A DNA stretch of 62,629 bases, filler included, from Albugo candida (GCA_040437565.1; 3 parts of 3 records of this genome joined end to end with filler, not necessarily neighbours in it); one strand, 5' to 3'; numbered from the whole stretch's first letter, positions 54,961 through 55,124 are shown. Notes: generated by a model from the letters alone, not told the origin. Translations and numbers: made by a program.

Positions 54961-54976
54961 CCAGACTTGCCCTCCA
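54961..54976 (-). repeat. Target-site duplication: 16 bp of 18S rDNA (CCAGACTTGCCCTCCA)
   Basis: Exact reverse complement of conserved 18S TGGAGGGCAAGTCTGG; separates copy 1 from copy 2. Confidence 0.93.
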
Positions 54977-55124
54977 CTTTTAAATTCGCTCTCTAGTGCG
55001 CAAGTAATATTCAGACCGTACTTTCAAAGAGCCAGTCAGCAAACCCCTCTTCACACCCACTCCGCGGATTTTTCTTCCAGCCTTCCGACCCCCTTTACAA
55101 ACCTTTCCCAGACTTTCCATCTCA

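Follow-up and report, generated by a model that had tools for sequence, protein, structure and literature searches.

LINE insertions antisense to the 18S rRNA gene

The window analysed in this work is a stretch of 62,629 nucleotides of DNA from Albugo candida, in which long interspersed nuclear elements (LINEs) are found inserted antisense to the 18S rRNA gene. It is a concatenation of several scaffolds with eight runs of N, and adjacency across the joins carries no meaning: linkers of the form N44 + TTAATTAATTAA + N44 are present at 24251-24350 and 47188-47287 (linker letters at 24295 and 47232), and four gaps of 100 N at 20491, 38762, 42718 and 44294. Our comparisons cover four LINE 5' ends, all on the + strand, which represent three lineages (A; B/D; C) of a single organism. 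Copy A (42324 onward) lies on a different scaffold from copies B, C and D (47288 onward) and is not contiguous with them. The coordinates of the individual features are collected in Table 1.

The first 130 nt of the scaffold with copies B, C and D are 18S rRNA sequence on the - strand, equivalent to positions ~549-678 of the Rfam family SSU_rRNA_eukarya (95.9 bits, E = 4e-27), of which the scans of the whole window had returned just 47373-47417. This fragment differs from the consensus by one change, CCTACA for CCTCCA, and such a long 18S sequence, reaching to the start of the scaffold, adjoins copy B alone; copies C and D are each preceded by 17 bp of 18S, and before that by the 3' end of the preceding LINE. 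The pattern CCAGACTTGCCCTCCA (up to three mismatches) has three matches on the + strand, at 47402, 54961 and 61930, compared to a mean of 0.30 in shuffled sequences, none of which (0/100) reached three. The two 17-bp spacers are identical to each other and fit a target-site duplication, which we infer them to be; the window contains no 3' junction with a long 18S sequence. Three of the four copies in the window follow ...ACCAGACTTGCCCTCCA, as does the LINE in P0128, a predicted protein from an independent contig of 613 bp, in which a LINE 3' end, the spacer (as the peptide NQTCPP, equivalent to the 17-mer) and a 5' untranslated region (UTR) of the A lineage succeed each other. Thus, all three lineages use the 18S site, and the remaining copy in the window, copy A, is off-target.

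The open reading frames (ORFs) of the LINEs are on the + strand and the 18S sequences on the - strand, which is not the shared orientation typical of R1 and R2. Read-through by RNA polymerase I (Pol I) would consequently yield antisense RNA of the element, and the elements would need a promoter of their own. In all four copies a single reading frame is open across the 18S-antisense sequence or spacer, the junction and the 5' UTR (...QTCPPLLNLLSSAQV...), and gene callers have predicted "proteins" (P0128, P0129) from this junction-spanning frame, which provided the route to additional junctions. The existence of a LINE specific for the 18S gene and antisense to it is well supported.

Judged by sequence similarity, the elements are L1-like non-LTR (long terminal repeat) retrotransposons with an apurinic endonuclease-like (APE) and a reverse transcriptase (RT) domain. 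RVT_1 was detected in copies B and C above the Pfam cutoff (E = 2.9e-10, 4.2e-12 and 1.7e-16), while Exo_endo_phos in B (E = 0.0026) and zf-RVT, found in C only (E = 8.4e-4; 20.4 bits versus the cutoff of 27.5), remained below it. A tblastn search with the oomycete homolog P0005 (1331 aa, PF03372 and PF00078) aligned copy C to residues 4-1310 of the protein and copy B to residues 112-1294; within the N-terminal part of P0005 the aligned residues are 4-287 for C and 112-315 for B, so that an APE-type endonuclease precedes the RT. The closest RT relatives are proteins of oomycetes (Peronospora, Globisporangium, Phytophthora, Peronosclerospora and Aphanomyces) with 45-62% identity; L1-like proteins of plants rank next. 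All named best relatives come from oomycetes and the first named exception is the plant protein P0043, which is an indirect sign of an oomycete host, as is the TTTAGGG-type repeat at 50047-50066; unnamed relatives carry no organism label. Copies B and D are 86% identical, while B and C share 35-65% identity at the amino acid level and 68.5% at the nucleotide level in the best RT-coding stretch. The 3' ends of B and C have in common a terminal motif of 22 nt, AGTGTAATGARAT..TT.ACAA, without an A-tail.

The ORF2 alignment to P0005 is broken into at least six frame segments in B and at least five in C, hence both copies are pseudogenes; the start of ORF1 in C (55648) is followed by an in-frame stop, and the 5' UTR of copy A is followed by no LINE coding sequence on its scaffold. 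Contigs from independent runs (X2 and X19) are nearly identical to the copies, with 0-3 differences per 300-785 nt, which shows the copies to be real DNA; the X2 contigs over the array, compared across 514-785 nt, have 0-3 differences and are free of gaps. The agreement of the X2 contigs with the assembly indicates that the frameshifts are real.

The contig depth in the bin that contains the B/C junction (54864-55151) is 413 in X2, compared to ~80 in the element body, 215 versus ~20 in X19, and 14.6 versus ~2 in X20, whose profile resembles those of the DNA runs. It thus exceeds the depth of the body by a factor of ~5-10 in each of the three runs with this stretch, and the termini with the spacer must be far more numerous than the body of this lineage. 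One X2 contig (near 61985) passes from a D-type block into a UTR of the A lineage, and one X19 contig (near 55013/61995) joins a C-type block to a D-type UTR via 12 other letters, which means that further variants of the 5' end exist in other data sets. The conserved-block pattern described below found no further copies (0 loci) in collections of metagenome, viral and prokaryote contigs, and the 18S-junction pattern found none (0 loci) in metagenome contigs.

A candidate core promoter at the 5' junctions

In Phytophthora infestans, the oomycete initiator (INR) is YCAYTYY and the flanking promoter region (FPR) is MWTTTNC, with a gap that nearly always measures 2 nt and with initiation near the A of the INR (Roy et al. 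2013, PMC3599244). The combined INR+FPR supra-motif occurs also in other oomycetes (PMC3599244; PMC4594904) and is less frequent in downy mildews (PMC4594904). The first-pass annotation of this DNA, made from the sequence alone, had used the same definitions to describe every LINE 5' junction as resembling an oomycete core promoter, and the four strings on which it relied are indeed present at 42321, 47415, 54974 and 61943. The description is exact for one of them, copy A, which matches YCAYTYYNNMWTTTNC in full, whereas the other three are each one mismatch off. Nonetheless, the majority consensus of the four, CCACTTTTAAATTTGC, is an exact 16-nt YCAYTYY-NN-MWTTTNC in the forward orientation.

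The probability of meeting this 16-nt pattern by chance is 1.6e-6 per position for the composition of the window and 7-9e-6 for that of the pyrimidine-rich UTRs. Among 124,106 positions on both strands of the window there are 19 matches with at most one mismatch, four of which are the LINE ends; exact matches number two (42321 and 13698). The latter (13698-13713, + strand, CCACTTCTCCTTTTCC) adjoins no recognised gene or LINE and was treated as background. None of the three 5' UTRs contains a second match with at most one mismatch beyond the junction motif. We consider it plausible, with the balance tipped slightly in its favor, that the INR+FPR at the junctions is a promoter.

Two other features of the 5' UTRs deserve mention in connection with transcription. 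At about +55, the B/D and C lineages, and not A, contain a CCAAT-box-like CCAATCAG, a possible component of an internal promoter; the CCAAT boxes of P. infestans are usually situated upstream of the INR (PMC3599244). Moreover, tandem monomers are found in copy C (a 41-nt unit repeated 3.9 times at 55312-55471, within 55292-55543) and in copy B (a 30-nt unit repeated 1.9 times at 47699-47757). Those of C and B share the core CCAGCCTTTCC..TTCTTC..AGAAG, match each other between lineages with 69-77% identity, and are reminiscent of monomeric LINE promoters.

A predicted conserved stem-loop at the 5' terminus

Each junction is followed by the conserved block that had been noticed previously: TCTCTAGTNCNCAAGTNANATTCANAC occurs four times on the + strand (42337, 47431, 54990 and 61959) and never in shuffled sequences. 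The accompanying statement that the rest of the UTR diverges between lineages is correct for the region beyond nt 100, where similarity falls to the level of shuffled sequences, but B/D and C can still be aligned up to about +100. The between-lineage identity amounts to 79-89% for nt 1-47, 56-64% for nt 48-100, and 49-58% for nt 101-250 (52% for shuffled sequences). The 5' terminus is better kept than the RT-coding DNA, even in the best stretch of the latter, and within the INR+FPR part (-3 to +13) 12-13 of 13 positions are identical in A, B and C.

Both RNAalifold and folding of the single sequences predict a common stem-loop of three helices from +12 to +56, which is the minimum-energy fold in all four copies (z-scores of -2.5, -2.8, -1.4 and -4.0). 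Helix 2 (GTRCR/YGYAC) reads GTGCA/TGCAC in A, GTACG/CGTAC in B and D, and GTGCG/CGTAC in C, i.e. two pairs are changed on both sides between lineages, and there is one G-U pair. The covarying bases are the very positions of the block that the first-pass annotation had left as variable. The fraction of cells that can pair is 92.9% with the structure as given and 27-52% when the partners are slid, while the covariation control is weak at four sequences: the observed score was also attained in 55 of 500 shuffles, and these sequences had themselves served to derive the structure. We therefore regard the folding of the block into a conserved stem-loop with two compensatory pairs, which is new with respect to the earlier annotation, as moderately supported. 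No Rfam match (E <= 1, whole window) identifies the stem-loop as an HDV-like (hepatitis delta virus-like) or other ribozyme or RNA family; ribozymes of this kind often escape sequence searches.

The first 11 nt of the element are unpaired in all folds, and the INR+FPR part is situated mostly 5' of the stem. The predicted fold suggests that the conserved block acts as RNA. The previous interpretation of the downstream block as a part of the promoter is thereby weakened, an RNA stem-loop with compensatory changes being the better reading.

A proposed model of insertion and expression, and its alternatives

We propose a model in which an APE-type LINE enters the 18S gene in antisense, finds its own RNA polymerase II (Pol II) promoter at the junction, produces an RNA that opens with the stem-loop, and comes to reside in a mixed stack; as a whole, we hold this model to be right with a confidence slightly above even. 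The endonuclease would nick the sense strand of 18S in the 530-loop region, at ...GTCTGGT^GCCAGC..., and cDNA synthesis would be primed on the conserved, tail-less 3' end of the element. The cut in the second strand, after ...CCCTCCA^ATTGG, would be offset by 17 nt and give rise to the 17-bp duplication. Later insertions of other lineages into the duplicated 17-mer would build the mixed head-to-tail arrays with 17-bp spacers. When the CCA at the close of the duplication is placed before the first 13 nt of the element (CTTTTAAATTTGC), the result is an exact oomycete INR+2+FPR. This would most likely serve as a Pol II core promoter with the start at or next to the A of the junction, and the RNA would then open with the stem-loop.

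A further proposal, put forward already by the first-pass annotation, is that the CCA of the 18S target supplies the start of the INR. At the junctions of copies B, C and D, the 18S-derived 17-mer does close with CCA (mutated to ACA in B). The uninterrupted antisense strand of 18S (CCTCCA, then ATTGG in the Rfam consensus) is devoid of an INR, therefore the motif arises only at the junction, after insertion. On the other hand, the off-target copy A also has TCCA before CTTTT. Its junction, TAT|TCCA|CTTTT, contains no 18S sequence beyond TCCA, and the preceding degenerate ORF, of the FAR1/AFT-like type, ends with ...WQLEIDNSTHNHDLMHLSAYS. Attempts to explain this flank otherwise failed. Local alignment of the flank against the 3' termini of B and C recovered just the 17 nt of the element itself, with scores at the level of shuffled sequences, so that the flank is neither a LINE 3' end nor a degenerate 18S, and a search of 28000-42700 returned no LTR pair that could place an LTR end next to copy A. 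Outside the window, no homologs of the flank were found: one search gave 0 hits, and the HMMER library returned the locus itself (P0121) and six weak, repeat-like matches without the HNH motif. A paralog within the window (36163-36630) reads ...HNHGCSLHPSWYSTHR, and its BLASTP alignment to the flank runs across the junction (E = 4e-4). Thus, TCCACT at the junction of copy A may be native to the FAR1-like ORF, in which case the element would have been joined by microhomology. From these comparisons we take copy A to be a genuine off-target insertion that retained (T)CCA, of a lineage that normally resides behind the 18S spacer.

The presence of TCCA in this single copy weakens, but does not refute, the idea that the target completes the promoter. 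Either CCA travels with the RNA or cDNA, or it is set by microhomology or by the preference of the nick, or it is a coincidence with a chance of 1/16 to 1/64. The strict version, in which the element carries just the downstream part of the core promoter, depends on the flanking CC, and is usually silent when mis-targeted because the INR is recreated by insertion after ...CCTCCA in 18S, or behind these letters in a spacer, appears to us rather improbable. Marginally more credit, though still well short of an even chance, may be given to the possibility that the INR+FPR does function as a promoter without owing its completion to the target, CCA being copied with the RNA or fixed by microhomology or nick preference, with target choice and expression uncoupled. 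It would account for the four nucleotides that copy A (...GCATAT|TCCA|CTTTT) shares with the end of the 18S 17-mer, for the sequence TTCA at the same locus in another assembly (P0121, P0129), which still fits YCAYTYY, and for the base-exact junctions in the 18S context, such as homology-guided joining would give (3/3 in the window, and P0128 at the peptide level). It also accords with the paralog, in which Y-S-T occupies the aligned place (TAT TCA ACC versus TAT TCC ACT), so that TCCACT may be native and provide 5-6 nt of microhomology. However, this explanation draws on a single off-target copy, the nativeness of the flank is indicated by one distant paralog, an RNA start upstream of the A is at odds with the usual use of the INR (PMC3599244), and a chance occurrence of TCCA is not negligible.

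A more radical proposal is that the conserved terminus works as RNA, in protein binding, definition or processing of the 5' end, or translation, while transcription comes from upstream (by read-through of the array, from a promoter in the 3' end of the preceding copy, or from antisense transcription of rDNA) and the resemblance to INR+FPR is coincidental. The prediction of the stem-loop as the best fold of every copy, the covariation in helix 2, and the arrangement of the copies head-to-tail, 17 bp apart and without A-tails, agree with it. Nonetheless, we judge it unlikely, since the INR+FPR part is conserved in spite of lying mostly outside the stem and would require a separate explanation, and the chance of a 16-nt match is only ~1e-5 per position. 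The covariation control is weak, the stem-loop matches no known RNA family, and the first 11 nt are unpaired; besides, a role of the terminus as RNA and a role as promoter are not mutually exclusive. As to the trivial explanation, i.e. that the junctions are chimeras of the assembly or that the array is a collapsed or misjoined repeat, the concatenated scaffolds with their N runs, the termination of copy A at a gap after ~400 nt, and the high depth of the junction bin, indicative of repeated termini, could be cited in its support. We give it very little weight, because nearly identical contigs over the array were obtained in independent runs, the spacer junction and the off-target junction recur in other assemblies (P0128, P0129, P0121), and an overlap of four nucleotides (TCCA) is too short for a misjoin in the assembly graph.

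It must be noted that several observations weigh against the promoter at the junction, favored in our model. Three of the four copies have a mismatch in the motif. The motif is located 479, 510 and 671 nt upstream of the ATG of ORF1 (in D, B and C, respectively), which is not the distance typical of host genes, as the 5' UTRs of P. infestans measure 32-144 nt with a median of 50 (PMC3599244). The DPEP element (SAASMMS), sought after the FPR, was rejected, as CAAGTRA fits four of its seven positions. All long copies are pseudogenes and the window contains no active source element; the evidence comes from three lineages of one organism. Furthermore, the 5' boundary of a site-specific element need not equal the 5' end of its RNA: any 18S-derived RNA copied from upstream would become invisible after insertion into 18S, so the boundary may not mark the start of the RNA. 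In this respect, TCCA at copy A is compatible with an RNA start upstream of the A of the INR, as well as with joining by microhomology.

Other features of the window

No ordinary host gene was recognised across the window, while remnants of other transposable elements are present. A remnant of a Tc1/mariner-like DDE_3 transposase (43442-44664, - strand, E = 2e-7), with a duplicated segment around an N gap, lies downstream of the fragment of copy A. Other remnants include a copia-type RVT_2 (24849-25793, E = 2e-27), an SH3 domain of a Tf2-type integrase (39360-40001), and the aforementioned AFT/FAR1-like domain (36163-36630). Copy B contains telomere-repeat-like sequence of the TTTAGGG type at 50047-50381, composed of (AACCCTA)x2.9 and a 29/58-nt tandem repeat with AACCCTAA.

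Table 1. LINE copies, their junctions and associated features, in positions of the whole window
Feature	Position	Strand	Remarks
Degenerate FAR1/AFT-like ORF of Mutator-like element (MULE) type, non-18S flank of copy A	41985..42323	+	ends ...HNHDLMHLSAYS(T)
INR+2+FPR match, copy A	42321..42336	+	CCACTTT-TA-AATTTGC; exact
5' UTR fragment of LINE copy A (third lineage)	42324..42717	+	ends in N gap
18S rRNA gene fragment	47288..47417	-	530-loop/515F region; from scaffold start to insertion point
INR+2+FPR match, copy B	47415..47430	+	ACACTTT-TA-AATTTGC; A for Y at INR position 1, within the 18S-derived part
LINE copy B (lineage B/D)	47418..54959	+	5' UTR 510 nt; ORF1 ATG 47928; APE and RT pieces
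Conserved 3' terminal motif AGTGTAATGARAT..TT.ACAA	54938..54959 (B); 61909-61928 (C)	+	no A-tail
17-bp 18S-derived spacer B/C	54960..54976	-	ACCAGACTTGCCCTCCA as read on +; last 3 nt, CCA (54974-54976), open the INR match
INR+2+FPR match, copy C	54974..54989	+	CCACTTT-TA-AATTCGC; C for T at FPR position 5
LINE copy C (second lineage)	54977..61928	+	5' UTR 671 nt with 41-nt tandem monomers; ORF1 start 55648
Predicted three-helix stem-loop of copy C 5' UTR	54988..55032	+	takes in conserved block 54990-55016
17-bp 18S-derived spacer C/D (second)	61929..61945	-	identical 17-mer ACCAGACTTGCCCTCCA
INR+2+FPR match, copy D	61943..61958	+	CCACTTC-TT-TATTTGC; T for M at FPR position 1
LINE copy D, 5' 684 nt, cut by window end	61946..62629	+	ORF1 ATG 62425
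CCAAT-box-like CCAATCAG	62000-62011 (D, GAGCCAATCAGC); 47472-47483 (B, gagacaatcagc); 55029-55040 (C, gagccagtcagc)		overlaps 3' strand of outer helix
Open frame across junction	47298-47564 (B); 54938-55528 (C); 61919-62215 (D); 42276-42716 (A)	+

Relationship to known elements and implications

As far as is known, the R elements lie in sense orientation within rDNA. R1, R2 and their kin (R7 and R8 in 18S, R9 in 28S) resemble the LINE described here in the use of a specific, conserved site in an rRNA gene and in the presence of several lineages per site; in particular, R8 of Hydra also inserts in 18S (PMC5035012). The present LINE differs from them in its oomycete host, in its position (549 in Rfam numbering), and in being antisense to rRNA, hence unable to ride on Pol I transcripts; R2 is believed to have no promoter of its own (PMC10946416). 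Its endonuclease is of the APE type, in contrast to the restriction-like endonucleases of R2 and R8. A parallel in domain architecture is provided by target-specific LINEs of the Tx1 clade and other L1-like ones, such as Mutsu in 5S rDNA and Keno in U2, which likewise combine APE with RT, insert into multicopy RNA genes, and comprise several subfamilies per target; a C-terminal zinc knuckle is also described for these families (PMC4640811, PMC5340908). The same host group harbors Utopia, LINEs of the U2 snRNA genes of oomycetes, different families of which are stacked in target arrays, as in the case studied here, and are maintained at low copy number (PMC4640811). However, Utopia possesses a restriction-like endonuclease and RNase H and targets U2, while the present family differs from the Tx1-like ones in its 18S target and the lack of an A-tail, and is likened to them by architecture.

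In Drosophila, the jockey, I and Doc elements have internal Inr+DPE Pol II promoters at their 5' termini. Similarly, Pr77, the first 77 bp of L1Tc, is an internal Pol II promoter common to several trypanosomatid elements (PMC1874656). The likeness of these systems to ours consists in a short 5'-terminal block that is conserved across diverged families and, in their case, drives initiation at the first base; the difference is that here a motif of the host type is predicted to straddle the junction, with its first 2-3 bases in the flanking target DNA. From the INR+FPR of cellular genes, which has the same 16-nt pattern, 2-nt gap and forward orientation (PMC3599244, PMC4594904), the motif described here and considered a candidate, differs in belonging to a retroelement and in its distance from the first ATG (479-671 nt as opposed to within ~200 nt).

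A search of the literature, which did not extend to Repbase, where the family may be catalogued, found neither an 18S-specific LINE of oomycetes nor an initiator that straddles a junction. The article on Utopia (PMC4640811) does not mention "18S", "promoter" or "orientation", and the 2024 review of rDNA and transposable elements (PMC10946416) does not mention oomycetes, Phytophthora or antisense.

The textbook LINEs of rDNA borrow the Pol I of the host. An antisense family in 18S with a Pol II start motif, if our model is true, would represent a second way of living in rDNA. The junction anatomy also suggests a solution to an old puzzle, namely how a LINE driven by an initiator can keep the promoter bases that are located upstream of the start of its RNA. 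If the target does complete the INR, the specificity of integration would be coupled to expression, every stacked copy would be competent for transcription from its first base, and the LINE could live antisense in rDNA without Pol I. For the biology of oomycetes, the array may provide a compact and naturally repeated test case of INR+FPR, and the conserved stem-loop at the 5' end is a candidate cis-element for the handling of LINE RNA.
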